A stretch of 13,523 nt of DNA from Candidatus Eiseniibacteriota bacterium (lineage in GTDB: Bacteria > Eisenbacteria > RBG-16-71-46). How positions within the stretch are numbered: position 1 is the first letter of the stretch; the number at the start of each line of letters is the position of its first letter. The notes beneath the pieces were generated by a model. That model did no database searches, was not told where the DNA came from, and saw only the letters and a program-made list of their open reading frames with translations. The stretch lies in the NCBI GenBank assembly GCA_031366795.1, contig JANLOX010000039.1:1-13523 (forward strand), in the 5' to 3' direction. Below, one piece after another: positions 1 to 13,523 of this stretch. Both the position numbers and the translations under genes were made by a program.

Positions 1-450
1 CTGGCCGGGGCACCGGCGGACTCGAGTACCTCCGGTTATCGCGCGGTGCGGCTGTTTTTCGCCTCGCCCGCGGGCGATCACCTGATCAGTGAATCGCGCG
101 AACTGCCCGAGAGCGCTACCCTGCACGAGCGGGTGGCGGCGCTGGTGAGCGAGCTGGATCGTGGACCTGCAGGCCCAGGGGTGGCGGCGCTGCCGCCCGG
201 GACTTCATTGTTGCGCGTGTTCCTCGATGCCGACGGCCTGATGACCGTCGATCTGTCGCGCGCGTTCCAGCAGGGATTCAAGGGCGGCACGGGGGCCGAG
301 TACCTGGCGATCGCATCGCTGACCCGCACGCTCGCCGCGAATGTGCCGGAGGTGAAGCGCGTGTTGATCGTGTGCGGTGGAGAACCCATTGCGACGCTGG
401 GCGGCCACTTGCCGCTCGATCGCCCGATCGATGTATCGGAGATGCCTTAA
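1..450 (+). CDS. GerMN-domain (sporulation/germination-type) protein, 5'-truncated
   Basis: Frame 1 is open from base 1 (LAGAPADSSTSGYRAVRLFF...) to TAA at 448-450. Motifs 'VRLFF', 'LPPGTSLLRVFLD', 'VDLS..F', 'SLTRTL..N.PEVKRVLI...GE....LGGH' fit GerMN. Its position directly before murI-rph is a familiar context. Confidence 0.8.
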   Translation: MAGAPADSSTSGYRAVRLFFASPAGDHLISESRELPESATLHERVAALVSELDRGPAGPGVAALPPGTSLLRVFLDADGLMTVDLSRAFQQGFKGGTGAEYLAIASLTRTLAANVPEVKRVLIVCGGEPIATLGGHLPLDRPIDVSEMP

Positions 451-452
451 AG

Positions 453-1322
453 ATGCCCGCCACTCACGATCCCAGGCCGATCGGCGTGTTCGACTCGGGG
501 CTCGGCGGCCTCACCGCCGTGCGCGAGCTGTTCCGCCAGCTGCCGCACGAGGCCGTCTACTACTTCGGTGATACGGCGCGGTTGCCGTATGGCAACAAGT
601 CGAAGGAGACGGTGACGCGGTTCTCCCTCGAGATCGCGTCGTTCCTCGTGCGCCAGAACGTGAAGTGCATCGTCGTGGCGTGCAACACCGCGTCTTCGCA
701 CGCCCTCGAGACGCTGCGCGCGCGCTTCGATCTCCCGGTCATCGGCGTGATCGATCCGGCCGTGCGCGCGGCCGTCGCCGTGAGCCCGCATGGCCGAATC
801 GGCGTCGTCGGCACGCTCGCCACGGTGGGCAGCAATGCCTTCGCGACCGAACTGACCAAGGCCGCTCCGGGGGCCACGCTGATCCAGCGCGCCTGCCCGT
901 TGTTCGTGCCGCTGGTCGAGGAAGGTTGGCTCGAGCATCCGGTCACCCGTCAGGTCGCCGAGGAATACCTTGCTGAACTGCGCAACGCGCATCTCGAGAG
1001 TCTCATCCTGGGCTGCACGCACTACCCGCTGCTGACGCCGCTGATCGCTGATCTCATGGGCCCCGGCGTGCACCTCGTGGACTCGGGCGCCGAAGCGGCG
1101 CGCGCCACCACGGCGCTGCTCGCCGCGCGCGGCCAGCTGGCCGATCGCCGTGACCCCCATCACCGTTTCTTCCTGTCCGACGAGCCGCGCCGCCGCAGTT
1201 TCGCGCGCGTGGCCGAGAGTTTCCTGAGTCGCCCGCTGCCGCAAGTGACGGTGGTCGACCAAACCGATCAGCCGTGGTTCATGCGCCCGCCGGTGGCGCG
1301 CGAACACGGCATCGAGGAGTAG
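453..1322 (+). CDS. murI: Glutamate racemase
   Basis: PIGVFDSGLGGLT, GDTARLPYG, and catalytic ACNTAS and GCTHYP motifs. Start placed at ATG 453, just after the upstream stop, not at 372 as in the track. Confidence 0.97.
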   Translation: MPATHDPRPIGVFDSGLGGLTAVRELFRQLPHEAVYYFGDTARLPYGNKSKETVTRFSLEIASFLVRQNVKCIVVACNTASSHALETLRARFDLPVIGVIDPAVRAAVAVSPHGRIGVVGTLATVGSNAFATELTKAAPGATLIQRACPLFVPLVEEGWLEHPVTRQVAEEYLAELRNAHLESLILGCTHYPLLTPLIADLMGPGVHLVDSGAEAARATTALLAARGQLADRRDPHHRFFLSDEPRRRSFARVAESFLSRPLPQVTVVDQTDQPWFMRPPVAREHGIEE

Positions 1323-1325
1323 ATC

Positions 1326-2135
1326 GTGACCCGCAAACCAGCCCCGATCCGCGAGCGGGAATCCGCCGTCGAACCCGCAGCCTTGCCGCTCGTGCGCCTC
1401 GATGGCCGCACCACGCGACAGTTGCGGCCGCTGAAGTTCGAGCGCGGCGTCAACCCGAACGCCGAGGGCTCGTGCATCGTCTCGCTTGGCCGCACGCGCG
1501 TGCTGGTGACGGCCTCGGTCGAAGAGCGCGTTCCGCCATGGCTGCGTGGCCAGGGCAAGGGCTGGGTGACCGCGGAGTACGCGATGTTGCCGCGCGCCAC
1601 CACGGACCGCACGCCGCGCAGCTCACAGACGGGCGGGCGCTCGCAGGAAATCCAGCGCCTGATCGGCCGCTCGCTGCGTGCGGTGACCAACCTCACCATG
1701 TTCGGCGAGCGCGTCATCACCGTGGACTGCGATGTTCTCGAGGCCGACGGCGGCACGCGCACGGCGGCGATCGATGGGGCCATGGTGGCGTTGCACGATG
1801 CGTTCGTGTGGATGTCGAACAAGGGCCAGTTGAAGGGCCCGCCGTTCCTCGACAGCGTCGCAGCGATCTCAGTAGGCATGGTCGATGGCGAGCCTTGCCT
1901 CGACCTGTGCTATGCCGAGGACTCGCGCGCGCAAGTCGACATGAACGTGGTGATGACGGGCGGCGGGCGGTTCGTCGAGGTCCAGGGCACCGGCGAATCC
2001 GCGACCTTCAGTGAGGCCGAAATGCGGCGCCTGCTGGCGTTCGCGCGGCTCGGCGTTCGCCGCGTGACGTCTGCGCAGCGGCGGTTGATCGGCGACTCGG
2101 GGCTGGTTCCCGTTGCGGCAACACCTCCCGCATGA
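1326..2135 (+). CDS. rph: Ribonuclease PH
   Basis: RxDGR, GWVTAEYAMLPRAT, EIQRLIGRSLRA, DCDVLEADGGTRTA and EVQGTGE motifs. GAGGAG lies before GTG 1326; an alternative start is GTG 1392. Confidence 0.97.
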   Translation: MTRKPAPIRERESAVEPAALPLVRLDGRTTRQLRPLKFERGVNPNAEGSCIVSLGRTRVLVTASVEERVPPWLRGQGKGWVTAEYAMLPRATTDRTPRSSQTGGRSQEIQRLIGRSLRAVTNLTMFGERVITVDCDVLEADGGTRTAAIDGAMVALHDAFVWMSNKGQLKGPPFLDSVAAISVGMVDGEPCLDLCYAEDSRAQVDMNVVMTGGGRFVEVQGTGESATFSEAEMRRLLAFARLGVRRVTSAQRRLIGDSGLVPVAATPPA

Positions 2136-2740
2136 GACTCGTGGTGGCCAGCATGAATCGCGACAAGCTCGAGGAGTTGCGTGAACTCCTGGCGTGGCCG
2201 GGCCTCGAATTGCTCAGCTTGTGCGATGTTCCAGGCGCCATGGCTCCGGACGAGACGGGTGCCACGTTGCTCGACAACGCGCGCATCAAGGCGCTGGCGG
2301 CGGTGGCGCTGACCGGGCAACCCGCGCTCGCCGATGACACCGGGCTCGAAGTCGATGCGCTCGAGGGGGCGCCCGGCGTCCGCAGCGCGCGCTTCGCGGG
2401 GCCGGACGCCAGCTACGCGCGCAACACCGAACACTTGCTCGGGCGGCTTACCGGCGTGCCCCCCGGACAGCGCGGCGCGCGGTTTCGCACGGTGTGCGTC
2501 GTGGCGTTTCCCGACGGGCGTGAGGTCGTGGCGGAGGGCATGCTGGAGGGCTGGATCACGGCGGTGCCGCGGGGCAACGCGGGCTTTGGCTACGATCCGG
2601 TGTTCGAACTGCCGGACCACTCGCGCACGCTCGCCGAGCTGTCCGCCGCCGATAAGCACGCGGTATCGCACCGCGCCCGTGCCGTGCGGGCGCTCAAGCC
2701 GGCATTGAGCGCGGCGCTCGAGCCGGCCCCGGGAACGTGA
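2132..2740 (+). CDS. rdgB: Non-canonical purine NTP (dITP/XTP) pyrophosphatase, Ham1 family
   Basis: ADDTGLEVDALEGAPGVRSARF, GFGYDPVF and SHRARA motifs. ATGA overlap with rph; canonical rph-rdgB pairing. Confidence 0.96.
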   Translation: MRLVVASMNRDKLEELRELLAWPGLELLSLCDVPGAMAPDETGATLLDNARIKALAAVALTGQPALADDTGLEVDALEGAPGVRSARFAGPDASYARNTEHLLGRLTGVPPGQRGARFRTVCVVAFPDGREVVAEGMLEGWITAVPRGNAGFGYDPVFELPDHSRTLAELSAADKHAVSHRARAVRALKPALSAALEPAPGT

Positions 2741-4746
2741 CCCTGAAGCGCTGGCTCTCACCGCTCTCGCGGGCATTTGGCCGTCTCGGCCGCGCGCCGC
2801 GCACCTCGGAGCAGCGCGACGTTCAGCGCGCCGCCGCCGAGCGCGTGCTGGAACACTACCGAACGCTGCTCATCGATCTCGGCGCGGTGGTGTGGGAACT
2901 CGATCTCGAGGCGCAGCAGGTGACCGCGGTCAGCGATTCGTGCGCCACGGTGCTCGGTTATTCCGCGCAGCAATGGCGCGAGTCGCCGCGGTTATGGATC
3001 GACACCCAACATCCCGACGATCTCGAGCGCTCAATGGCGTTGATTGCGCGGCTCGCCGGCGGGGCGGGCGAGGAGGTCTACGAGCACCGCATGATCGCCC
3101 CCGATGGCCATGTGGTGTGGCTGCACACCGCGATCCGTGCCGCGCGCGATGCTGCGGGTCACGCGATGTTACGCGGTGTCTCGATGGACATCACCGCCCA
3201 CAAGCGCATCGGCACCGAATTGCAGGGCGCCCTGTCGCTGGTCCAGGCCACGCTCGACGCCACGGACAATGGTATCCTCGTCGTCGGGCTCGACGATCGC
3301 ATCACCAGCCATAACCAGAAATTCGCCCAGATGTGGGGCATCATGGAAGGCCTGATGGGCGCGTTCGACGAGGACGCGGCCCGCCGCCATGCCTCGGCGC
3401 AGGTCAAGGACCCGGAACGGTTCGTGGCGCGGATCCGTGAGATTTACTGCGAGCCGGGCTCGCAGAGCTTCGATGTCATCGAGTTCCGTGATGGCCGCGT
3501 GATCGAGCGCACCTCGCAGCCGCAGCGTCTGGGTGGAGCAATCGTAGGGCGCGTTTGGAGCTTCCGCGACGTCACGGAACGCCTGCGCACGGAACAGGCT
3601 TTGCGCTTGAGCAACGAGCAATTGCAACAGGCGCAGAAGATGGAGGCCGTTGGCCAACTCGCGGGAGGTGTGGCGCACGACTTCAACAACATCCTCACCG
3701 CCGTGCTCGGCAATCTCAGCCTGATTCTCGCCGACCCCGAAGTACCGCTCGGTGTGCGGCACCGCGCCGAAGAGATCCAGCTCGCCTCCGAGCGCGCGGC
3801 CAACCTCACGCGTCAACTGCTGGCGTTCGGCCGCCGCCAGATCCTGACGCCGCGAATTGAATACCTGTGCGTGGTGCTGCTGGAGATGGTCAAGCTGCTG
3901 CGCTTGTCGGCCGGCGAGCGGATCACGATCGAACTCGACCTGGCGCCCGAACCGTCTCCGGTGCTCATCGAGCGCGGCCAGATGGAACAGGTCATCCTCA
4001 ATCTCGTCATCAACGCCCGCGATGCCATGCCGGCCGGCGGCCGTATCGTCATCAAGACGCGCCGCGTCGAGCGCGCCGCGGCGGGCTCACTCGCCTGGAC
4101 CGAGTCCGCCCAGGGTCACGATGTCCTGCTCAGCGTGCGTGACGATGGCGAGGGCATGGACGCCGCGACGATGGCGCGCGCGTTCGAGCCGTTCTTCACC
4201 ACCAAGGACCGTGGCCGCGGCACCGGTCTCGGGCTCGCCTCCGCTTACGGAATCGTGCAGCAGTTGGGAGGCTCGATCCAGGTGCATAGCGCCAGGGGCC
4301 AGGGCGCCACGTTCGACATTCTGGTGCCTCACGCGCCGCAGGGCGAGGGGCACGGGGCGGGGCGGGCACCCGCGCGCCTCGAGACGGTCATGGTCGTCGA
4401 GGACGAGCCGCCGCTACGCGGCCTGATGCGCGATGCGCTGGCGGGCGTGGGCTATCGCGTCATCGAGGTGCCCAATGGCCATGCCGCGCTCGAGCTGTGC
4501 GAAGCGCTCCCGGGCGGACTCGATGTGCTGGTGAGCGACATCCTGATGGCCGGCATCGACGGTGTGGAACTGGCGGCCAGGCTGCGCGCGCAGCGTCCAG
4601 GAGTGCGGGTGTTGTTCATCACCGGCCTCGGGGCCGACGCTCCCGGTCTGCCGCGCGAGCTGCCCGCGGACGCGAGCGTGCTGCGCAAGCCGTTCACGAT
4701 GGAGGCGCTGCTGCGTCGCGTGCGTGAGTGCTTCGAGCGGGAGTAG
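2737..4746 (+). CDS. Cytoplasmic hybrid sensor histidine kinase/response regulator (2 PAS + HisKA + HATPase_c + REC)
   Basis: PAS signatures (HPDD...[14 protein letters not shown]...[15 protein letters not shown]). H-box [17 protein letters not shown]-box [30 protein letters not shown]. Receiver VVEDE..SDILM..ITG..KPF. No obvious transmembrane segment. GTGA overlap with rdgB. Confidence 0.93.
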
Positions 4747-4750
4747 AAAA

Positions 4751-4827
4751 TGGGGTGGATGACGGGGTTTGAACCCGCGACCACTCGAGCCACAGTCGAG
4801 TGCTCTACCAGCTGAGCTACACCCACC
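4751..4827 (-). tRNA. tRNA-His (GTG), CCA encoded, includes G-1
   Basis: Minus strand reads GGTGGGTGTAGCTCAGCTGGTAGAGCACTCGACTGTGGCTCGAGTGGTCGCGGGTTCAAACCCCGTCATCCACCCCA. It has an 8-bp acceptor stem (G-1:C73) and anticodon GTG. Confidence 0.97.
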
Positions 4828-4901
4828 ACCACATTCAAGGAACGGTTAGCCACACCGTTCCCACGTTAGTTGAGACACACAAATCTTGCGCTGCGGCGAT
4901 C

Positions 4902-4927
4902 CGATGCCGCATTGGGATGCGGCATCG
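4902..4927. repeat. Perfect 11-bp inverted repeat (hairpin) in the Arg-His tRNA spacer
   Basis: CGATGCCGCAT-TGGG-ATGCGGCATCG. There is no U-tract on either side, so it is probably a spacer or processing hairpin. Confidence 0.75.
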
Positions 4928-4939
4928 CGCCCTTCCGAT

Positions 4940-5016
4940 TGGCGCGCCTGGAGGGAATCGAACCCCCGACCGACGGATTAGAAATCCGTTGCTCTATCCG
5001 ACTGAGCTACAGGCGC
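4940..5016 (-). tRNA. tRNA-Arg (TCT), CCA encoded
   Basis: Minus strand reads GCGCCTGTAGCTCAGTCGGATAGAGCAACGGATTTCTAATCCGTCGGTCGGGGGTTCGATTCCCTCCAGGCGCGCCA. Anticodon arm is ACGGA-TTTCTAA-TCCGT. Confidence 0.97.
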
Positions 5017-5067
5017 AGGGCATCCATCCCAGACCTTTGGGAAAGCCAAGGGGGTTCTTCTGGCACT

Positions 5068-5146
<79 letters not shown>

Positions 5147-5171
5147 GCACAGGGTCTGCAAAGTCATGCCG

Positions 5172-5201
5172 AAGATAGCCATGCAGGAGGAGCCGCGTCA
5201 A
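5172..5201 (-). promoter_or_regulatory. Putative sigma70 promoter for the tRNA Pro-Arg-His cluster
   Basis: Minus strand TTGACG (5201-5196), N18, TATCTT (5177-5172), about 25 nt upstream of tRNA-Pro. Confidence 0.65.
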
Positions 5202-5240
5202 ACCTTCGGTCCCCAAGGCCCAAGGGCGCATCAGAAGCGG

Positions 5241-5269
5241 TTGCACCGGCCTCCAGTGGCTCCTATGCT
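5241..5269 (+). promoter_or_regulatory. Putative sigma70 promoter for ssb-ssrA
   Basis: TTGCAC (5241-5246), N17, TATGCT (5264-5269), divergent from the tRNA promoter. Confidence 0.6.
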
Positions 5270-5317
5270 CAGGCCCGAACGTCAGTTTCACTCAGGACCA
5301 CTTCGCTGGAGACTTCC

Positions 5318-5773
5318 ATGGGTGTCAACAAGGTCATTCTCCTGGGCAACCTCGGTGCCAATCCCGAGATGCGTTTCACGCAGGGCGGGCAGGCGGTCGC
5401 CAACCTGCGCATCGCTACCACCGAGCGCTACACCGATAAGAACGGCCAGAAGCAGGAGAGCACCGAGTGGCATCGCGTGGTGTTCTTCGGCAAGCAGGCC
5501 GAAGTCGTGGGGCAGTACCTCACCAAGGGGCGCCAGCTCTACATCGAAGGCCGGATTCGCACGCAGAAGTGGCAGGACAAGGCGGGCCAGACGCGCTACA
5601 CCACCGAGATTCTCGGACAGAATTTCCAGTTCATCGGCGGGGGCCGCGGCGAGGAACGCAGCGGCGGCGGCGGTGGTAGTGGCGGTGAAGACATGGGCGC
5701 CATGGTGCCACCGGCCGAGGATGGAATTCCGTCCGATTTCGGCGGCGGTCCGGATGACGACATTCCTTTTTGA
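5318..5773 (+). CDS. ssb: Single-stranded DNA-binding protein
   Basis: [33 protein letters not shown], Gly-rich linker and C-terminal DDDIPF. GGAGA ribosome-binding site. Confidence 0.98.
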
Positions 5774-5782
5774 TTTTCAAGC

Positions 5783-6137
5783 GGGGGCGTAAAGGTTTCG
5801 ACGGGAATTGTGAACCAGGAAGTGCAGGCCGGGGACCCGTGTCCTCGTCAAAAAAACGGGACTATTCAACTGCCAATGAGCAGTTGCTTCTCGCTGCCTA
5901 ACTAGCAGCGACGGTCGCCCGGACCCCGCCTGTGGGGGCCGAAGCGAGCGTCAGACAATCGCAGGCTGGCTCGACGTCCCGCCCCGGGGCCGAAGGCGAG
6001 AGTAAGTAGGGGCTGGCACGTCACTGATCCCGCCGGTCGGAGCGGGGACGCGCGAGACTCAAACGGCCGGACACGCCTGTAGGATCTCCCTGGGGATTGA
6101 TTTTCGGACGCGGGTTCGATTCCCGCCGCCTCCACCA
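5783..6137 (+). ncRNA. ssrA: tmRNA (transfer-messenger RNA), one-piece
   Basis: 5' end GGGGGCGTAAAGGTTTCGACGGG and 3' end GGACGCGGGTTCGATTCCCGCCGCCTCCACCA. Acceptor stem has the G3:U70 Ala identity pair. Pseudoknot pk1 at about 5830-5860. Length 355 nt. Confidence 0.97.
5872..5901 (+). other. tmRNA proteolysis-tag reading frame (A)ANEQLLLAA*
   Basis: After TCAACT: GCC AAT GAG CAG TTG CTT CTC GCT GCC TAA. The AN start and LAA end are typical. Confidence 0.9.
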
Positions 6138-6142
6138 CGCAC

Positions 6143-6171
6143 GAAGGCCGGTCCGCGAGGACCGGCCTTTT
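6143..6171 (+). terminator. Intrinsic terminator after ssrA
   Basis: GAAGGCCGGTCC-GCGA-GGACCGGCCTTTT: a GC-rich stem with a GNRA loop and a short U-tract. Confidence 0.8.
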
Positions 6172-6174
6172 CGC

Positions 6175-6203
6175 TTGCCACGCCGGGGGCCCGCGAGTAC
6201 CCT
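6175..6203 (+). promoter_or_regulatory. Putative sigma70 promoter for the yggS operon
   Basis: TTGCCA (6175-6180), N17, TACCCT (6198-6203), immediately after the ssrA terminator. Confidence 0.5.
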
Positions 6204-6213
6204 CCCGCGTCCT

Positions 6214-6912
6214 GTGAGTGGCCAGTCTGACGATTTCCCGACCCGCCTCAAGTCTGTCCAAGACCGCATCGCTGCAGCTGCCGCGCGCTCCGGCCGTACG
6301 CCGGGTGCGGTCACGTTGATCGGTGTCGCCAAGACCGTCGCGGTGGACCAGATCCGCCGCGCCCTGGCTGCCGGTTTGACAGATGTGGGAGAGAATCGCG
6401 TGCAGGAAGCCGAACAGGCCATAGCGGCCGTCGGCAGGACGGCGGCGCGCTGGCACTTGATCGGGCATTTGCAAGGCAACAAGAGCGGCCGCGCTCTCGA
6501 GGGATTCGATCGCATCCATACGTTGGATTCCGTCGAGTTGGCGCAAACGCTGTCGCGCAAGGCAACGGAACGGGGCCGCACGGTTCCGGCGCTGGTGCAG
6601 GTCAATGTAAGCGGTGAGCCCTCGAAGCACGGGGTCGCACCGGCTGGACTGGTCGAAATGTTGCGGCAACTGGAAGGCAGTCCCGGACTCGAGATCGACG
6701 GCTTGATGTCGATCGGGACCCGGGTGGAGCGGCCCGAGGATGCCCGGCGGGAATTGGCCCGGCTGCGGGAGTTGCGCGACGAGGCGGAACGCGCGCTGGG
6801 CAGGCGGTTGCCGCACCTGTCGATGGGAATGAGCGACGACTACGAAGTGGCGGTAGAAGAGGGCAGCACCTTCGTGCGTCTCGGGGCGGCGTTGTTTGGC
6901 GTCCGGCCTTAA
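6214..6912 (+). CDS. yggS: PLP homeostasis protein, YggS/PROSC family
   Basis: LIGVAKT (PLP Lys), GENRVQE, WHLIGHLQGNK and LSMGMSDDY..A.EEGST.VRLG..LFG.R motifs. Start moved to GTG 6214 because the track start at 6097 lies inside the tmRNA. Confidence 0.95.
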   Translation: MSGQSDDFPTRLKSVQDRIAAAAARSGRTPGAVTLIGVAKTVAVDQIRRALAAGLTDVGENRVQEAEQAIAAVGRTAARWHLIGHLQGNKSGRALEGFDRIHTLDSVELAQTLSRKATERGRTVPALVQVNVSGEPSKHGVAPAGLVEMLRQLEGSPGLEIDGLMSIGTRVERPEDARRELARLRELRDEAERALGRRLPHLSMGMSDDYEVAVEEGSTFVRLGAALFGVRP

Positions 6913-6973
6913 GTCTCACGGAGCAACGGGCACAACAGGCGGCGCCAGGATGGCGCGCCCCTAGGAGCAACGG

Positions 6974-7273
6974 ATGTTCGTGATCGGCAATCTGCTCAGC
7001 GCGCTGGCGGGATTGATCGCATTTCTCGCCCAGGCGCTTTCGCTGGTGCTGTTGGTCAATGCGTTGTTGTCGTGGGTCCGGCCTGATCCGTCGAACCCCA
7101 TCGTGATGTTCCTGGACCGCGTCTCGGATGCGGTGTGCTCACCGGTGCGGCGGTTCCTCCCGACGGTGTACGGCGGCATCGATTTCGCGCCGTTCATCGT
7201 CATGCTGGTGTTGTGGTACGGCGTTCACGGATTCCTGGTTCGCACGTTGTCGGACCTCGCCATCCGGCTATGA
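6974..7273 (+). CDS. yggT: YggT family membrane protein
   Basis: ALLSWVRPDPSNPIV.FL.RV....P.RR.LP...GIDFAP motif. AGGAG ribosome-binding site; follows yggS. Confidence 0.93.
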   Translation: MFVIGNLLSALAGLIAFLAQALSLVLLVNALLSWVRPDPSNPIVMFLDRVSDAVCSPVRRFLPTVYGGIDFAPFIVMLVLWYGVHGFLVRTLSDLAIRL

Positions 7274-7554
7274 CGGTTCGCCTCAGGGTGCGCGTGCACC
7301 CGGGCGCCCGTCGCGAGCGCATCGACCGCCGCATGGCCGATGGCACGTGGCGGATCGAAGTTCACGCGGCGCCCGAAGCAGGACGCGCGAATGAGGCAGT
7401 CGTGGGGTTGCTCGCTGAGGTGCTGGGAGTGCCGCGCGGCAGGTTGCGCGTCGTCTCAGGACAATCGGGGCGCAACAAATTGGTCGAAGTCGAGGGCGTT
7501 GAAGGCGCCGACGTTGAGGCAAGGCTGACGCAGTCCGCGCACCGGGAGGGCTAA
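7270..7554 (+). CDS. DUF167 (YggU/UPF0235) family protein
   Basis: VRVHPGARRE, V.AAPEAGRANEAV..LLA..LGV and SGQSGRNK.V motifs. ATG 7270 overlaps the yggT stop (ATGA). Confidence 0.9.
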   Translation: MTVRLRVRVHPGARRERIDRRMADGTWRIEVHAAPEAGRANEAVVGLLAEVLGVPRGRLRVVSGQSGRNKLVEVEGVEGADVEARLTQSAHREG

Positions 7555-7629
7555 AGCCCACGCAGCTGGCTAACCCGCCCGAATTCCTCACCGCTGGTGT
7601 CCGAACTGAAATATCACGGAGGTAAGTTC

Positions 7630-8637
7630 ATGGTGTCTTCCCGCAAGAAGAGCGCAGCGAAGTCGAAGTCAGCCCGGCCGGCGGTGAGCCGCAAGCCGGC
7701 GAAAAAGGCCGCGCCTGTGCGGGCAAAGAGCCCCGTGAAGAAGCCAGCTCCCGCTCAGCCAGTCGCCCTCGCCAAGAAGCCGGTCAAGGCTGTTGCAGCG
7801 CCTAGGGCCAGTGCCAAGGCCGCTCCCGCAGCGAAGGTTGCCAGAACGGCGCCGCCCAAGCCTCTAGCGGCCAAGGCTGCGGCTGCCAAGGCTGCGGCTG
7901 CCAAGGCTGTGGTTGCCAAGGTTGTGGTTGCCAAGGTTGCGCCGGTCAAGGCTGCGCAGGGCAAGCACGTGCCCATCGTCCGCGCCGTGGCCAAGGGTGA
8001 CATCAAGCCGGCGCACAAGCCCATGAAGGGAGCCGCCGCCAAGGCCGGCATCGGCAAGAACCGCACGGGCCCTTCGCCGCGCAAGGGTTCGGCTTCGGAG
8101 ACCGTGCGTCCGCTGGGAATGCTGCCGCCCGAAGCCGTCGCTCGCGCCGCGCACCAGCGCACCGTCCAGCGCCCACCGCTCAAGCCGGCTCCGGCGTCCG
8201 TGCCCGTCCGTCACATCGCCGAACCGACCCGTTCCGAGGGGGCGCACCGCTTGACGGAGAAAGAACTCAAGACTTTCGAAGACCTGCTGCTCCGCGAGCG
8301 CCGCCGCATCTTGAAGGAAATGGGACACCTCGAGACCACCGTGCTCAAGGTGAACCAGCGCGACAGCTCGGGCGACCTGTCGGGTTACTCGTTCCACATG
8401 GCCGATGCCGGCACCGATGCGATGGAGCGCGAGAAGGCATTCCTGTTCGCTTCCGTCGAGGGCCGCGTGCTGCTCGAGATCGACGACGCGCTGCGCCGCC
8501 TGTATCGCGGCGAGTACGGCAATTGCGAAACGTGCGGTAACCTGATCGCGCGCGCGCGTCTCGAGGTGATGCCGCAGGCGCGGCTATGCATTTCATGCAA
8601 GGAGAAGGAGGAGCGGGAGCAGCGGGGCGCGGTGTGA
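7630..8637 (+). CDS. DksA/TraR C4 zinc-finger protein with a long Lys/Ala/Pro-rich N-terminal extension
   Basis: C-terminal coiled coil with HMADAGTD, followed by YGNCETCG..IARARLEVMP.ARLCISCKE. GGAGGT (7618-7623) precedes ATG 7630. Confidence 0.9.
   Translation: MVSSRKKSAAKSKSARPAVSRKPAKKAAPVRAKSPVKKPAPAQPVALAKKPVKAVAAPRASAKAAPAAKVARTAPPKPLAAKAAAAKAAAAKAVVAKVVVAKVAPVKAAQGKHVPIVRAVAKGDIKPAHKPMKGAAAKAGIGKNRTGPSPRKGSASETVRPLGMLPPEAVARAAHQRTVQRPPLKPAPASVPVRHIAEPTRSEGAHRLTEKELKTFEDLLLRERRRILKEMGHLETTVLKVNQRDSSGDLSGYSFHMADAGTDAMEREKAFLFASVEGRVLLEIDDALRRLYRGEYGNCETCGNLIARARLEVMPQARLCISCKEKEEREQRGAV
7870..7959 (+). repeat. Coding tandem repeat, 6 x 15 bp (degenerate)
   Basis: GCCAAGGCTGCGGCT x2, GCCAAGGCTGTGGTT, GCCAAGGTTGTGGTT, GCCAAGGTTGCGCCG, GTCAAGGCTGCGCAG. 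These encode AKAAA AKAAA AKAVV AKVVV AKVAP VKAAQ. Confidence 0.9.
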
Positions 8638-9212
8638 AGCGCTCCTTCCCGCTGCTCGTCAGTATCGCCGGCCTGATTCTCTGGGCCGATCAATGGACCA
8701 AGAGCTGGGCCGAGAGCACGCTGATCGCCCGGCCTCCGGTGAACGTGATCGGTGAGATCGTGCGCCTGACCTACACGCGTAATTCCGGCGTGGCATTCGG
8801 GCTGGGGCAGGGCCACGGCTTCCCGTTCTACCTGTTCTCAATCGCCGCAGTACTGGTCCTATTGTTTATGTTTGCCCGCCACCGGACACATTCCCTGATG
8901 CGGCAGCTGGCGCTGGCGTTGATCCTCGGTGGTGCCCTCGGCAATCTCGTCGACCGCCTGACGACGGGCGAAGTCGTCGATTTCATCCTCATCGGCTGGC
9001 GCCAATGGTACTGGCCGGTGTTCAATGTGGCAGATTCGGCAGTCTCGATCGGCGTGGTGTTGTTCGCGTTGACGTGGTTGCAACAGGAAAACCCACCCGC
9101 TGCTGAGGCCCTCACCCATGACGACCCCCATGCAGTGGACCGTCCCGGAACCGAACACGGGGGAGCGGCTGGATCGCTTCCTGGCCGCGGCGCAGACGGA
9201 CCTCTCGCGTAG
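8634..9212 (+). CDS. lspA: Lipoprotein signal peptidase II
   Basis: DQWTK, NSGVAFG, GGALGNLVDR, GEVVDFI and WPVFNVADS motifs. GTG 8634 overlaps the upstream stop (GTGA). Confidence 0.96.
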   Translation: MKRSFPLLVSIAGLILWADQWTKSWAESTLIARPPVNVIGEIVRLTYTRNSGVAFGLGQGHGFPFYLFSIAAVLVLLFMFARHRTHSLMRQLALALILGGALGNLVDRLTTGEVVDFILIGWRQWYWPVFNVADSAVSIGVVLFALTWLQQENPPAAEALTHDDPHAVDRPGTEHGGAAGSLPGRGADGPLA

Positions 9213-10104
9213 CCAGCTCCAGACGCTGATCCGCGACGGCAGGGTCGAGGTCAATGGCCGTCCGGCCCGCGTGTCGCACCGGGTGCAGACCGGCGATGCG
9301 ATTACCGTCGAGATGCCCGAGGCCCCCGACCACGCGGGGCTCGAGCCGGAAGCCATTGCGCTCGACATCGTGTTCGAGGACGAACACCTGCTGGTGGTCA
9401 ACAAACCCGCCGGGATGGTCGTGCACCCGGGGGCCGGCGTGACCAGCGGGACCCTGGTCCACGCACTGCTCCATCATGTGCCCGCGATCCGCACGGTGGG
9501 CGGCGCGGACCGCCCGGGCATCATTCACCGGCTCGACAAGGAAACCTCCGGACTGCTGCTCGTCGCAAAGACCGCACGCATGCATCGCGAGTTGGTCGAC
9601 ATGATGCGCCGCCGCGAAGTGAGCCGCGTCTACCACGCGCTGATCTGGCGGGATCCGCGTGAGTCCGAGGGCGTGATCGACGCGCCGCTGGCGCGCGACC
9701 AACGCGAGCGCAAGCGCATGATGGTGGTGACGCACGGGGGACGCCAGGCGGTGACGCACTGGCGCGTGCTGGAGCGCTATGGCCTCGCAACTTTGCTCGA
9801 GGTGCGGCTCGAGACCGGGCGCACCCACCAGATCCGCGTCCACCTGGCGCACATCCGCTACCCCGTCGTGGGCGACCCGACGTATGGCGGGAGGCCCAAA
9901 AAGCAGTTGAGCGCGGACGATCGCGAGCGTAGCCTCGCAATCGAGTTGCTCCGCTGCCTGCCCCGGCAGGCATTGCATGCCGCCGAATTGGCGTTCACGC
10001 ATCCGGTTACGGGTGAGGAACGCACGTTCACTTCTGCCCTTCCCAACGACTTTGAACTGGCCCTGACCCAGCTGCGGGCATTCGCCCTGAGCCGGAAGGC
10101 CTGA
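9118..10104 (+). CDS. rluD: RluA/RluD-family 23S rRNA pseudouridine synthase with N-terminal S4 domain
   Basis: RLDRFLA..LSRS (S4), VVNKPAGMVVHP, RPGIIHRLDKETSG, LETGRTHQIRVH and RQALHA motifs. Follows lspA. Start is 9118 or 9130. Confidence 0.92.
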   Translation: MTTPMQWTVPEPNTGERLDRFLAAAQTDLSRSQLQTLIRDGRVEVNGRPARVSHRVQTGDAITVEMPEAPDHAGLEPEAIALDIVFEDEHLLVVNKPAGMVVHPGAGVTSGTLVHALLHHVPAIRTVGGADRPGIIHRLDKETSGLLLVAKTARMHRELVDMMRRREVSRVYHALIWRDPRESEGVIDAPLARDQRERKRMMVVTHGGRQAVTHWRVLERYGLATLLEVRLETGRTHQIRVHLAHIRYPVVGDPTYGGRPKKQLSADDRERSLAIELLRCLPRQALHAAELAFTHPVTGEERTFTSALPNDFELALTQLRAFALSRKA

Positions 10105-10111
10105 GCCCACC

Positions 10112-10564
10112 ATGCTCCAGACTGCGGTCCCCGATGTGATCAGCGTAAGGATGCCCAGCCGCCTCGAATTGCTCGCCCTGCTCGACGGCGTGACGACTTC
10201 GGTGTGCGACCGGCTCCATGTCGACGGCGACACCGCCTCGCTCATCTCGATGTCCGTGATCGAGGCCGGCACGAACGCCATCCAACACGGCCACAAGCGC
10301 GACGCCACGCGTCCCGTGGATATCGACTTCAAACTGTTCGCGGATCGTATCGAGGTCTCGGTGTTCGACTCGGGGCCGGGATTCGACCTCAAGGACATCC
10401 ATGCCGACGCGACCTCGCCCGAACACCTGTTCGATGCCCGCGGCCGCGGCATCTTCATCATGCGCAGCTGCATGGACACGGTGGACTACGAGTTCTCGAA
10501 GACGGGCACGACCTGCCACCTGATGAAGCGTTTCCCGCCGCCCGCTCCTGCCGCGGCGGAGTAG
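10112..10564 (+). CDS. RsbW/SpoIIAB-like anti-sigma factor Ser/Thr kinase (HATPase_c_2)
   Basis: EAGTNAIQHG (N box), D.GPGFD (G1), RGRGIFIM...MD.V.Y (G2). Stand-alone domain of 150 aa. Confidence 0.85.
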   Translation: MLQTAVPDVISVRMPSRLELLALLDGVTTSVCDRLHVDGDTASLISMSVIEAGTNAIQHGHKRDATRPVDIDFKLFADRIEVSVFDSGPGFDLKDIHADATSPEHLFDARGRGIFIMRSCMDTVDYEFSKTGTTCHLMKRFPPPAPAAAE

Positions 10565-10568
10565 GCGA

Positions 10569-11099
10569 GTGGCGAGAATCCTGGCCGTTGATTGGGGTGA
10601 GCGACGCATTGGGCTGGCGATCAGCGATCCGCAGGGCATCATCGCCGTGGGACTCGACACCCTGACCGTCACCGGCCACGACATGGCCGCCACCCGCGTT
10701 GCCGAGATCGCGCGCGAAGCGGAAGCCGAATCCATCGTCGTGGGACTGCCGCTGTTGATGTCGGGAGTGCGCGGCGAGGCTGCCCAGTCCGCGGAACGCT
10801 TCGCGGCGCTGGTGGCGAAGCGCAGCGGGCTGCCCGTCGACACCTACGATGAGCGGCTGACGAGCGCGTTGAGCCAGCGCCGCCTGCGCGAAACAGGCGT
10901 GCGCACAGGGCACGCGCGAGGGCGCGTCGACCAGGGCGCGGCGATCGCGCTGCTCGAGTCCTACCTGATGCGGCTGGCCTCGCGGGCGCGCGAAGCAGTC
11001 TCGCCCGAAAGTGACGAGGCGGATGATGGTCGTGACGCGTCGCCCGCGCCGCCCACTCCACCTGGGCAGCCCGGCGAGCGGGAGCCCGAAGGCCCATGA
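10569..11099 (+). CDS. ruvX: YqgF/RuvX family nuclease (putative pre-16S rRNA nuclease)
   Basis: RILAVDWGERRIGLAISD, IVVGLPL.MSG, YDERLTS and VDQGAAIALLESYL motifs, followed by an acidic/Pro-rich tail. Confidence 0.95.
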   Translation: MARILAVDWGERRIGLAISDPQGIIAVGLDTLTVTGHDMAATRVAEIAREAEAESIVVGLPLLMSGVRGEAAQSAERFAALVAKRSGLPVDTYDERLTSALSQRRLRETGVRTGHARGRVDQGAAIALLESYLMRLASRAREAVSPESDEADDGRDASPAPPTPPGQPGEREPEGP

Positions 11100-12205
11100 C
11101 GCCGCGCGAACCCAGGCCCCAATCGGCCCGGCGCCGGCCATTCCGGCCGCGACGCTGGGCGCTGCTGCTACTGGTTGCCGCGGGGCTGGCCATCGCATGG
11201 CACTTGTTCCTGCCCGCCGGGTTGAACCCGCCCGATGAGCGGCGCGTGGTGCTGATCGAACGCGGCGCCACCGTGCACGGCATCGCCACGGAGTTGGTGC
11301 GGGTCGGGCTCGTGCAGGGAACCATTGGTTTCGAAGCGCTCGCGCGGCTGATGCGGCTCGATCGCGGCATCAAGGCGGGGCAGTATTCGTTCAAGCTGGG
11401 CACCACGGTGCCCGCGCTGTTGCGGGCCCTGGCGCGCGGCATGGGCGGTCTCGACTTGGTGACCCTCCCCGAGGGCCTGACGGTGAAGCAAGTGAGCGGA
11501 ATTCTCGCCGGGCACCTCGGCGTGCCGGCGGCGGCCTTCGATTCGTTGGCGAAGGATCGTGCCTTCCTCGACTCGCTGGGCATCGCAGCACCCTCCATCG
11601 AGGGCTACCTTGCGCCGGATTCGTACGAGTTTCTTCCCGGCACGCTGCCCGAGGTCGCCTTCCGCACCATGGTGCAGCGCACGCAGTCGATCCTGCTCGA
11701 TGCTTCCGCCGGTCGTGATTCACTGCCGCTGGGGCTATCGCTGCAGCAATTGCTGGCACTGGCCTCGATCGTCGAATCCGAGGCCCAACGCCCCGAGGAG
11801 CGGGCGCGGATCGCGCGCGTATACCTCAACCGGCTGCAAATCGGCATGCGACTCCAGGCGGACCCCACGGTGGCCTACGGCGAGGGCCGCCCGCCGCGTT
11901 CCCGCTTGTTCTTGCGGGAGCTGCAGCATCCTTCGCCCTACAACACCTATCTTCACGAAGGGCTACCGCCGGGCCCGATCTGCAACCCTGGCAGGTCCAG
12001 CATCGAGGCGTCGCTGAACCCTACCGAGGGGCTCACGGACCTGTATTTTGTCGCGCGGGGTGATGGCCGGCACCTATTCTCGGGGACCTACGCCGAGCAC
12101 CTGAAAAACATCCAGACCGCCCATGCCATGATCGCGGCCCGTGCGGAAAGCCTTGCAGTGGACACGACGGCGCACGACACTGTCGCGCTCACCCCCCGAA
12201 AATAA
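11096..12205 (+). CDS. mltG: Endolytic transglycosylase MltG (YceG family)
   Basis: N-terminal transmembrane segment; IKAGQY, VTLPEG, EGYLAPDSY, LASIVESE, LQADPTVAY, SPYNTY..GLPPGPICNPG and YFVARGDGRHLFS motifs. ATGA overlap with ruvX. Confidence 0.96.
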   Translation: MTPREPRPQSARRRPFRPRRWALLLLVAAGLAIAWHLFLPAGLNPPDERRVVLIERGATVHGIATELVRVGLVQGTIGFEALARLMRLDRGIKAGQYSFKLGTTVPALLRALARGMGGLDLVTLPEGLTVKQVSGILAGHLGVPAAAFDSLAKDRAFLDSLGIAAPSIEGYLAPDSYEFLPGTLPEVAFRTMVQRTQSILLDASAGRDSLPLGLSLQQLLALASIVESEAQRPEERARIARVYLNRLQIGMRLQADPTVAYGEGRPPRSRLFLRELQHPSPYNTYLHEGLPPGPICNPGRSSIEASLNPTEGLTDLYFVARGDGRHLFSGTYAEHLKNIQTAHAMIAARAESLAVDTTAHDTVALTPRK

Positions 12206-12324
12206 TCCGGGAACCGCCGGGCGAGGCGTTGGGGTATATCCTTCAACGCCCCACGGTGGCGGTGGCACAGGATCGATCCTCGCTGGGATCGGCTGGTGCG
12301 CCAGCCCCAAAAGCTGGCCGTGCT

Positions 12325-12384
12325 ATAGCCGACACCCGGCTCGGACCGATTGGCCCGAGTGGTTGTGGGCTATTTGTTTTTGTT
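12325..12384 (+). terminator. Putative intrinsic terminator or attenuator hairpin
   Basis: Imperfect hairpin ATAGCC..GCTCGG.CC-GATT-GG.CCGAGT..GGCTAT (12325-12373) followed by TTGTTTTTGTT. Confidence 0.45.
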
Positions 12385-12412
12385 ACTACCGTGAGGATGG
12401 AGGGAATCGAGC

Positions 12413-12661
12413 ATGAGCCAAAGCAAGCCGGTGGTCAGGCCCCGAAGCCAGCGCAAGCCGGCTGAGACCGACCTGGGGTTCAACTGGGGGCCGCTCAACA
12501 GCGCCCTCCTGGGCCTCGGAGTCGTGCTCATCCTGGCGGGGTATCTCGCGCTTTCGAAGGGTTCGATCACCCTCGCCCCGCTACTTCTCGTCGCCGGGTA
12601 CGTCGTTGTGGTCCCGGCAGCCCTCGTTCTCTTGGGTAGGGGCAATATCTCGGGCGAATAG
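12413..12661 (+). CDS. Small two-TM membrane protein, DUF3098-like
   Basis: GGAGG ribosome-binding site at 12399-12403. Basic N-terminus, then 'N..LLGLGVVLILAGYLAL..GSITLAPLLLVAGYVVVVPAAL', which resembles DUF3098 as I recall it. The family call needs an HMM check. Confidence 0.75.
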   Translation: MSQSKPVVRPRSQRKPAETDLGFNWGPLNSALLGLGVVLILAGYLALSKGSITLAPLLLVAGYVVVVPAALVLLGRGNISGE

Positions 12662-12727
12662 CTCAGCTGGCAGAGCACTTGCCTTACAAGCAAGGGGTCA
12701 CAGGTTCGAGCCCTGTTTCGCCCACCA
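12652..12727 (+). tRNA. tRNA-Val (TAC), CCA encoded
   Basis: GGGCGAATAGCTCAGCTGGCAGAGCACTTGCCTTACAAGCAAGGGGTCACAGGTTCGAGCCCTGTTTCGCCCACCA. Perfect 7-bp acceptor stem; anticodon arm CTTGC-CTTACAA-GCAAG. Confidence 0.97.
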
Positions 12728-12857
12728 TACGTGTGGCAAAAAGGACTCAAAGGTCAGGTTTGGGTTCTGGATTTGTTAAGTGTCTTGCTGTGTCGGGAGC
12801 ACCAATTACCCGTCCGCTAAACGGGTGGCAGAACGGTGATTGGGTACTAAAAGTTTC

Positions 12858-12887
12858 TTGACATGCTCCGAGATCGAGGCCTAGACT
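12858..12887 (+). promoter_or_regulatory. Putative strong sigma70 promoter for the secreted-protein gene
   Basis: Consensus TTGACA (12858-12863), N18, TAGACT (12882-12887), with an A/T-rich stretch (TAAAAGTTTC) just upstream. Confidence 0.65.
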
Positions 12888-13077
12888 TTCTTCGGCTCGG
12901 AAGGCCATGTGGTCTTTCCAATTAACGTCATTCGTTACCAGTCTTGCAGACCATCTTTTTAATTCTGAAGCGTCGAAAGGAGGTGGCTGTAGCCCGACCC
13001 GAGTCCTTGCAACTGAGATCCACAAAGCAATCCAGTGCATGCCTCATCGCTCATTTCATTTCTCTGGAGGTGCAACA

Positions 13078-13523
13078 ATGACTCGTGTTGTCCGCAATGC
13101 CGCGCTCCTTTGCGCTGCCGGCATTCTCGTAGCTTCCGCGGTCATGGCGAACGTGCCGGATCCCGCAAAGTCGCAGCTGCAGAGCCAGTACATCGCCGTT
13201 GAAGGTTCGACCGGTGGCAACCCCGACAACTGCTCGGATAACCGCTGTGGCAACTTCAGCGTCACCGTTCGTGACTTCGCGAACAACGTCATCGCTGGTT
13301 CCACGGTTGTCATCGATTTCTCTGCCTGCTCGGATATCCAGATTTCCTGCGACCAGCTGAACGCGGTCACCGGCCAGACGTTCCTCGCCGGCAAGAAGGT
13401 CTCGGGCACGACGAACGCCCTCGGCCAGTTCACCTTCAAGGTGCAGGGTGCCTCGAACGCCCAGCCGACCACGAACAACACGACGACGGCTGGCACGGTG
13501 CTCACCACTGGGTCTCCCTCGCC
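13078..13523 (+). CDS. Secreted protein with Sec signal peptide and Ig-like (Big_1-like) motifs, 3'-truncated
   Basis: Not in the ORF track because it has no stop in the window. GGAGGT ribosome-binding site, ATG 13078, open to the end of the window: MTRVVRNAALLCAAGILVASAVMA|NVPDPAKSQ...FSVTVRDFANNVIAGSTVVIDFS...GTTNALGQFTFKVQG. Confidence 0.85.
   Translation, partial: MTRVVRNAALLCAAGILVASAVMANVPDPAKSQLQSQYIAVEGSTGGNPDNCSDNRCGNFSVTVRDFANNVIAGSTVVIDFSACSDIQISCDQLNAVTGQTFLAGKKVSGTTNALGQFTFKVQGASNAQPTTNNTTTAGTVLTTGSPS

Follow-up and report, generated by a model that had tools for sequence, protein, structure and literature searches.

A conserved membrane-protein gene with its stop codon inside tRNA-Val in Candidatus Eiseniibacteriota

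What becomes of a gene whose only stop codon belongs to a tRNA, and has such an arrangement been selected or tolerated? The question is raised by a stretch of 13,523 nucleotides (nt) from a Candidatus Eiseniibacteriota bacterium (GenBank assembly GCA_031366795.1, contig JANLOX010000039.1, positions 1 to 13,523 of the forward strand; hereafter the window), in which a gene for a small membrane protein reads into tRNA-Val(UAC) and ends at a TAG formed by tRNA bases 8 to 10. A preliminary description of the sequence had proposed that tRNA maturation by RNase P removes this stop codon from the messenger and could couple the level of the protein to RNase P or trans-translation activity, with a tolerated accident as the fallback. 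We found the overlap in many relatives, and it is the fallback that best fits stop frequency, GC content, switching between states and frame bias. Our preferred reading, to which we give a probability of roughly 55%, is that gene and tRNA form a co-transcribed unit of the secG-leuU kind, that the gene has lost its own stop and borrows U8-A9-G10, that the ribosome must finish before RNase P cuts, and that the overlap is tolerated, a likely side effect of genes lying close together in GC-rich DNA.

The overlap and its conservation

The locus and the rescue system that forms its context comprise the following features.

12413-12661, + strand: gene for an 82-amino-acid, predicted two-helix membrane protein, by sequence a distant DUF3098 relative; ATG start, end ...GRGNISGE and stop
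12399-12404, + strand: Shine-Dalgarno motif GGAGGG, 8 nt 5' of the ATG
12652-12727, + strand: tRNA-Val(UAC), anticodon tac, with encoded CCA (ARAGORN)
12652-12661, + strand: 10-nt overlap of coding sequence (CDS) and tRNA, tRNA bases 1-10 being the last 10 nt of the CDS
5783-6137, + strand: transfer-messenger RNA (tmRNA) with tag ANEQLLLAA (ARAGORN and Rfam)

The open reading frame (ORF), the overlap and the ribosome-binding site lie where the preliminary description had placed them, as judged by ORF scan, ARAGORN and Rfam (RF00005 places the tRNA at 12652-12724 with 72.3 bits). The ORF scan bore out that no in-frame stop precedes 12659, and the tmRNA tag had been read correctly. CDS and tRNA gene share a strand and the frame runs into the tRNA, as in the selB-selC pairs discussed below; the tRNA supplies the final base of the Ser80 codon, the codons of Gly81 and Glu82, and the TAG at 12659-12661, which is U8, A9 and G10 of tRNA-Val. 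Folding the end of the ORF together with the tRNA gave nothing beyond the acceptor stem. TAG occupies positions 8-10 in 23 of the 45 tRNAs that ARAGORN predicts in this genome, so that any ORF entering a tRNA in that frame would stop there, and six ORFs of at least 60 amino acids end inside a tRNA, the DUF3098-like one included. The other five are frames rich in Arg, Pro, Gly and Ala without a Pfam match, whose homologues were not searched for. What chance does not account for is that a real, conserved gene runs into the tRNA.

With the 82-residue product of the ORF (P0001) as query, 99 homologues reached E ≤ 0.001 in a protein set clustered at 90%; at 50% identity the same threshold gave 1051 cluster representatives, 335 of them at E ≤ 1e-10. 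Two hydrophobic helices are predicted, joined by a nearly invariant loop (SKGSITLAP), with a basic N terminus and a short basic tail that carries the final SGE. Entropy per codon position was 0.76/0.64/1.26 in 34 related genes, a coding substitution pattern in which third positions vary freely even at invariant residues, and almost every related locus has a GGAG-type motif ahead of the ATG. The earlier guess that the protein belongs to DUF3098 held loosely: all 14 members of alignment A1 match PF11297 at E ≤ 1 (best 6.4e-06) and several distant homologues have a precomputed PF11297 assignment, whereas P0001 itself scores 12.6 bits (E 0.1), below the gathering threshold of 25 bits, and its direct Pfam and NCBIfam scans gave no match at E ≤ 0.01. 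It shares with DUF3098 the character of a small two-helix membrane protein, and its conserved core aligns with the C-terminal part of the model; by sequence comparison P0001 is a distant relative of DUF3098 and no member by Pfam's own rule. A protein atlas offered only unnamed clusters or clusters partly labelled DUF3098. A table line in PMC10434189 lists a DUF3098 member, and a literature search for DUF3098 together with tRNA-Val found no paper. SecG was ruled out as the identity of P0001, a proper SecG (79 bits) being encoded elsewhere in the genome.

To follow the stop codon through the family we surveyed 41 related genomes, which returned 30 loci, and 80 species-level loci from GTDB genomes; deduplication left 75 distinct gene/tRNA-Val loci. 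The gene was present in 32 of the 41 related genomes, tRNA-Val(tac) lay directly 3' of it in all 30 loci, and in 26 of these the protein ended in ...GE with the stop at tRNA positions 8-10. Two loci (L020 and L023) have their own stop and a 19-nt spacer to the tRNA, and one (L027, genome G026) enters the tRNA in another frame and stops at positions 21-23 with the end ...ANSSAG. At L005 (genome G008; tRNA at 1722-1797 in gene orientation) TCG replaces TAG at 8-10, with C at position 9, and the ORF consequently runs through the whole tRNA and is about 25 amino acids longer. Among the 80 species-level loci, 25 stop at 8-10, 26 have their own stop before tRNA-Val, 6 have tRNA-Asp downstream, and no tRNA was found for 23. 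The preliminary description had asked for a check of whether diverged genomes keep the stop at tRNA positions 8-10, and it came out positive: of the 75 distinct loci, 45 have it there. A further locus ends at 21-23, another reads on through the entire tRNA, and the remaining 28 carry a stop of their own, 0-416 nt ahead of the tRNA; 47 loci have no in-frame stop before the tRNA. The stop lies at a conserved tRNA position across relatives, while others stop ahead of the tRNA, as is also the case for selB-selC.

The protein ends convey the same pattern. C-terminal GE was found in 87 of 100 proteins (90% clustering), and the best 150 representatives at 50% clustering, judged from protein ends alone, include 35 with terminal GE and 7 with terminal ANSS[AV]G, their tails differing widely in length and sequence. 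Linkage of the gene to tRNA-Val is ancient and reaches Zixibacteria, Ignavibacteria, Gemmatimonadota and TA06, all with the gene's own stop. Some Ignavibacteria and Zixibacteria (L073, L077, L090, L094, L098 and L107) carry tRNA-Asp(gtc) 38-55 nt after the gene in place of tRNA-Val, and at L053 and L066 tRNA-Val is itself followed by a tRNA-Asp-like sequence, a hint of an older array of gene, tRNA-Val and tRNA-Asp. An Eisenbacteria-typical gene with its leader also occurs in metagenome-assembled genomes labelled Acidiferrales, Phycisphaerae, Terriglobales or Omnitrophota (L045, L048, L054 and L058); these labels are probably binning or labelling errors.

Selection or tolerance

Calculated from the genes' own codon-position composition, the probability of a stop is 0.7-2.9% per codon, and a random tail of the observed length would hold a stop in 0-18% of cases, or an expected 3.3 of the 45 loci. 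With stops at about 1% per codon, the overlap can last for a long time without selection. Only GC-rich loci show it: each of the 12 below a GC of 0.56 has its own stop, and 31 of the 33 with GC of at least 0.655 have the stop in the tRNA. The state of the locus has also changed repeatedly. On a tree of 74 core sequences, built without the tails from 62 columns by a quick search and with many forks unresolved, seven state changes are needed and well-supported branches force at least two; L058 and L070 read into the tRNA, yet the clade to which they belong (support 96) has nine further members, all with a stop of their own 0-6 nt before the tRNA. Where the own stop lies close to the tRNA (20 loci, spacer of at most 30 nt), reading past it would add 29-103 codons in 15 loci; for the rest, a second stop precedes the tRNA in two, a stop falls in the D-loop in one, and the tRNA TAG at 8-10 is met in two. 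Own stops are rare where the tRNA TAG is in frame, and it follows that they survive where they are needed. That they are seldom retained in the TAG frame argues against the tRNA TAG being a poor or costly stop.

The likeliest alternative is a selected coupling, in which the stop would be kept in the tRNA such that protein and mature tRNA are alternative products of each transcript, protein output reports the balance of translation, RNase P and trans-translation, and the mRNA retires itself. Several observations are in keeping with this proposal. The overlap is kept in 33 of 33 rows of the main clade and in 8 of 8 of a second family clade despite insertions and deletions in the tail, the C-terminal signature recurs in 42 of 150 representatives below 50% identity, variants shifted in frame still end in the tRNA (at 21-23), and the family-specific structured leader described below suggests a regulated unit. 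Neutrality, however, would give the same persistence with stops at about 1% per codon, and the depletion of own stops in the TAG frame is predicted by cost-free replacement, so that it says less about any advantage. Among close relatives, L070 differs in state from L100 and L080, and L058 from L057; 28 of the 75 loci do well with their own stop, the overlap tracks GC content, and no functional link between the protein and tRNA-Val is known. We consider selected coupling unlikely. Regulation of the unit is possible, but nothing specific supports the coupling to RNase P or trans-translation that the preliminary description had favoured, and neutral retention, restriction to GC-rich loci, switches of state and frame bias all speak against it.

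Transcription, the leader RNA and tRNA maturation

The preferred reading places gene and tRNA on one transcript. In the last 60 nt before the tRNA we found no synonymous-site constraint, third-position entropy being 0.6-1.95 in every codon, and since third positions vary right up to the tRNA, no conserved internal promoter is visible. A sigma-70 scan of 11900-12857 gave no site, and none in the CDS; a sigma-70-like site (TTGACA-18-TAGACT) stands at 12858-12887, before the next gene. In 20 own-stop loci of relatives the spacer is 0-30 nt, which leaves no room for a promoter. As in secG-leuU, no promoter is apparent between gene and tRNA. Where the tRNA has been duplicated, in G014 and G016, gene and leader were duplicated along with it. 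Among the contigs from four metatranscriptome runs of four studies, pieces 229-457 nt long, from three or four of the studies, join a homologue's tail to the tRNA (X1, 449 nt; X4, 457 nt; X3, 356 nt; X2, 229 nt), and an X2 contig 98% identical to the window spans 12260-12504, beginning in the leader, crossing the terminator-like hairpin and ending within the ORF. Unmatched contig ends in the ORF frame read ...ASLLIRSRKPGE, ...ALVLVGRKATSGE and ...LLIRGRNQATGE; comparison of five loose-end strings with the collected loci gave a single 14-mer match, in L012. As a control, 8.9 kb of the window was compared with the same runs, which cover tRNAs, tmRNA, leader, tRNA-Val and the next gene and leave the 5.6 kb of CDSs at 6388-12049 almost bare; DNA carry-over is therefore small. 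The tmRNA, a positive control, was by far the deepest feature in the four runs, with summed contig depths to ~20,000. Gene and tRNA are likely co-transcribed.

These observations bear directly on the possibility that the tRNA is expressed mainly from a promoter of its own in the CDS, in which case overlap and processing would concern minor transcripts only. An essential single-copy tRNA needs strong expression, the upstream leader holds a terminator-like hairpin, the promoter of the unit has not been pinned down, and canonical terminators after the tRNA are rare (6 of 74 loci), all of which would suit independent expression. It is opposed by the freely varying synonymous sites, which extend across the 3' half of the CDS, by the lack of a sigma-70-like site within the CDS, by the short spacers, by the contigs that join ORF tail to tRNA, and by the joint duplication of ORF, leader and tRNA; we judge it distinctly improbable.

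Upstream of the gene lie two further features.

12209-12239, + strand: boxes GGGAACC (12209-12215) and GGGTATAT (12232-12239), ~16 nt apart
12239-12412, + strand: unannotated structured leader RNA, conserved, covarying and covered by RNA contigs

In the window's family the nucleotide sequence is conserved over some 180 nt preceding the ATG, and the leader has a conserved 5' strand, CGCCCCAC-GGxGGCGGxGGCAC. The predicted fold consists of a small 5' hairpin, a helix GGCAC/GUGCC around hairpin H1 (conserved loop UCUUCGCUGRG), a variable hairpin H2 and, at the 3' end, a terminator-like long hairpin with a U-run (12351-12382), after which the Shine-Dalgarno motif follows. On alignment A3, 17 of 40 pairs change on both sides (9.1 in shuffles, standard deviation 1.7; 0 of 500 reach 17), and 87.8% of cells are paired, against 31-52% with slid partners. 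RNAalifold on a first, wider alignment had yielded two hairpins only, the variable hairpins being misaligned there. An Rfam search of 12150-12760 at E ≤ 10 returned the tRNA and one chance match and nothing for the leader. A covariance model of the leader (R1) had one match in its own genome, at 12239-12415 with 84 bits, and full-length matches in 17 of 24 other genomes of family f1, all directly upstream of the gene; it had none in 16 genomes of other families, and 71 loci from beyond the family clade gave no match at all. With the window's genome included, 19 genomes of the family have the gene, and all of these but G013 (18 of 19) have the leader, which RNA contigs cover in all four runs. 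An attenuator, a stable leader fragment and a separate small RNA are candidates for its nature. It is not 6S RNA, which is located elsewhere in the genome, and signal recognition particle (SRP) RNA was rejected because no Rfam model matched and the three hairpins are unlike SRP RNA. RF00169 found no SRP RNA anywhere in this 96%-complete genome, other SRP models not having been tried.

The two boxes are conserved in alignments of 33-34 family loci, with a spacer that varies between them. Since one RNA-library contig begins at 12208, the RNA may include the boxes, which are candidates for a promoter or for the leader's 5' part. The pattern GGAACC...GGTAT was tried as a housekeeping promoter consensus and rejected: it matches the genome loosely at only four places, none of them in front of tmRNA, 6S RNA or RNase P RNA.

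The tRNA-Val(UAC) gene is present in a single copy in this assembly. Two single-contig relatives (G015 and G022) have one copy each at an identity of at least 97%, linked to the ORF, the anticodons of weaker matches not having been read, and G014 and G016 have two copies each, both ORF-linked. The tRNA of this locus seems indispensable. RNase P RNA, tmRNA and, elsewhere in the genome, SmpB are all encoded, and it is sound to infer, as the preliminary description did, a non-stop mRNA after cleavage at +1. RNase P RNA has two full-length matches in the genome (G000 C361:8800-9189 and C421:562-921; 267 and 230 bits), the first of them 1.4 kb after tRNA-Met and tRNA-Val(cac); the presence of two may reflect a strain mixture or 3% contamination.

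On the preferred reading, that of a tolerated overlap in a co-transcribed unit, leader, ORF and tRNA would be transcribed in that order, with ribosomes translating the precursor before its processing, or while it is still nascent, as far as the stop at U8-A9-G10. During termination at 12659-12661 the ribosome would cover the 5' acceptor strand and part of the D arm; the tRNA would then be unfolded, and translation of the gene's end and 5' maturation would be mutually exclusive on any one molecule. Once the tRNA has folded, an RNase P cut between 12651 and 12652 would remove the stop and leave an mRNA ending ...AUC UC, probably opened to rapid 3' decay, by analogy with E. coli secG-leuU. Ribosomes still on the cut mRNA would reach its end after Ile79 and be rescued by tmRNA-SmpB, with the product tagged for degradation. 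As for its origin, the gene would have stood next to tRNA-Val since before the lineages of the FCB group split; in GC-rich Eisenbacteria, where in-frame stops are scarce, its own stop would have decayed where the frame allowed, and the invariant tRNA TAG would have taken over. Coupled translation, rapid decay after cleavage and tmRNA rescue probably make the arrangement harmless.

A more elaborate proposal would make the stop a selected, self-limiting device under a new riboswitch-like leader that controls an essential tRNA gene, with the H1 loop and the terminator hairpin forming an antiterminator. Between the H1 loop and the terminator's 3' strand 83% pairing was seen, with double changes in 6 cells, which points weakly to an antiterminator. 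If the design were real, each maturation of the sole tRNA-Val(UAC) precursor would retire one membrane-protein mRNA, chains in flight would receive the ssrA tag, and protein output would read translation against RNase P kinetics. We regard this proposal as a long shot.

A number of points weigh against tolerance in a shared transcript. The stop frequency, the correlation of state with GC content, the frame bias and the lability on the tree are all confounded by shared ancestry, and one clade contributes 9 of the 20 short-spacer loci. Neutrality is sufficient; that it is true is a further step. The read-through at L005 may stem from an assembly error; if it is a natural variant, it would suggest that little depends on the exact stop. 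No sequencing run contained as many as half of the sampled words, and the RNA evidence consists of assembled contigs, which are mute on starts, ends, strand and expression level, and the bridging contigs derive from relatives of this genome. A terminator-like hairpin with a U-run in the leader is odd for an upstream promoter feeding an essential single-copy tRNA. The upstream boxes are no more than a candidate promoter for the unit, and a degenerate, unconserved promoter in the CDS is possible.

That the annotated end is not the biological one, the protein not being made or termination or frameshifting occurring elsewhere, is very improbable: the product is predicted from sequence and P0001 alone has no Pfam match at E ≤ 0.01, but the numerous homologues form a conserved family with coding-type substitutions, the ATG and the Shine-Dalgarno motif are kept, and 47 loci have no earlier in-frame stop.

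Comparison with known systems

Mukai 2021 (Int J Mol Sci 22:4605, PMC8124441) describes selC nested in or overlapping selB on the same strand, with the selB stop at tRNA-Sec positions 46-48 in Dyella/Luteibacter and a Nitrospirae lineage and a new upstream stop in close relatives. The same paper proposes that tRNA processing produces a non-stop selB mRNA, such that SelB and tRNA-Sec are alternative products, and rates the trait as conserved, not essential. As described there, the likeness to the present locus is close: a bacterial frame enters a same-strand tRNA and stops at a conserved tRNA position, and relatives have a prior stop. The partners differ, a small membrane protein and an elongator tRNA-Val(UAC) with no known functional link here, as does the position of the stop (8-10 here, 46-48 there), and the arrangement here extends across a good part of a candidate phylum. 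Sequence analysis is the sole basis in both cases, and here a neutral explanation was tested through GC content and frame bias. The non-stop idea is thus already published for selB-selC, and the present locus is of the same kind, with other partners and a much wider spread.

For co-transcription the nearest parallel is secG-leuU of E. coli. Mohanty and Kushner (Nucleic Acids Research 2008, PMC2241853) report that RNase P separates secG mRNA and leuU on one transcript, that 14 nt are left after the secG stop, and that secG mRNA has a half-life of <30 s after separation. There too a small membrane-protein gene stands directly before a tRNA gene, but cleavage leaves a normal mRNA, whereas here it would remove the stop codon; co-transcription and cleavage, on that account, were shown experimentally for secG-leuU and are inferred here. 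The genome under study has the same neighbourhood as E. coli secG-leuU at a separate place (G000 contig C458, locus L111), with secG at 1459-1938 and tRNA-Leu(gag) from ~1968 on the same strand after a 29-nt spacer.

Two further systems offer looser comparisons. In arfA, RNase III makes a non-stop mRNA whose product is subject to tmRNA tagging, and the truncated product is an active rescue factor in a feedback loop with tmRNA. An endonuclease-made non-stop mRNA is common to both cases; here nuclease and site are others, and nothing suggests a feedback loop. In mitochondria, tRNA excision sets mRNA ends, overlaps make mRNA and tRNA competing products, and stops are completed by polyadenylation. 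The setting there is organellar, whereas here it is a free-living bacterium with an ordinary TAG stop. Overlaps of genes with tRNAs in mitochondria have reportedly been treated by Doublet et al. in 2015.

The locus is a natural case, on the scale of a phylum, in which a seemingly indispensable tRNA cannot mature unless a conserved gene loses its stop codon. Three questions could be addressed cleanly with it: how often ribosomes finish on unprocessed pre-tRNA, how much trans-translation such a locus demands, and whether ribosomes and RNase P are in competition for the same RNA. The analyses of frame bias and GC content suggest a rule for annotation: tRNA-packed genes in GC-rich genomes can shed their own stop and borrow U8-A9-G10, and automatic trimming of such CDS/tRNA overlaps as presumed errors is accordingly ill-advised. 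The leader, which is expressed and covaries, is an RNA element not reported before, whose tie to a tRNA gene is unusual for a cis-regulatory RNA.

Beyond the tRNA one minor feature was noted.

12742-12768, + strand: weak terminator-like hairpin followed by GGATTTGTTA

By a rule requiring a hairpin plus T residues, a site follows the tRNA in 6 of 74 related loci, and this one is not conserved. The gene after the tRNA (12907-13523, + strand) has no Pfam or NCBIfam match and is kept downstream of the tRNA in 47 of 110 loci. A sigma-70-like promoter, TTGACTTTGCT followed after ~17 nt by TAGACT or TAGAAT, is strongly conserved before it, ~40-70 nt after the tRNA (L057, L058, L070, L072, L075, L076, L078, L080, L086, L096 and L100), which indicates that housekeeping promoters in this phylum look canonical.

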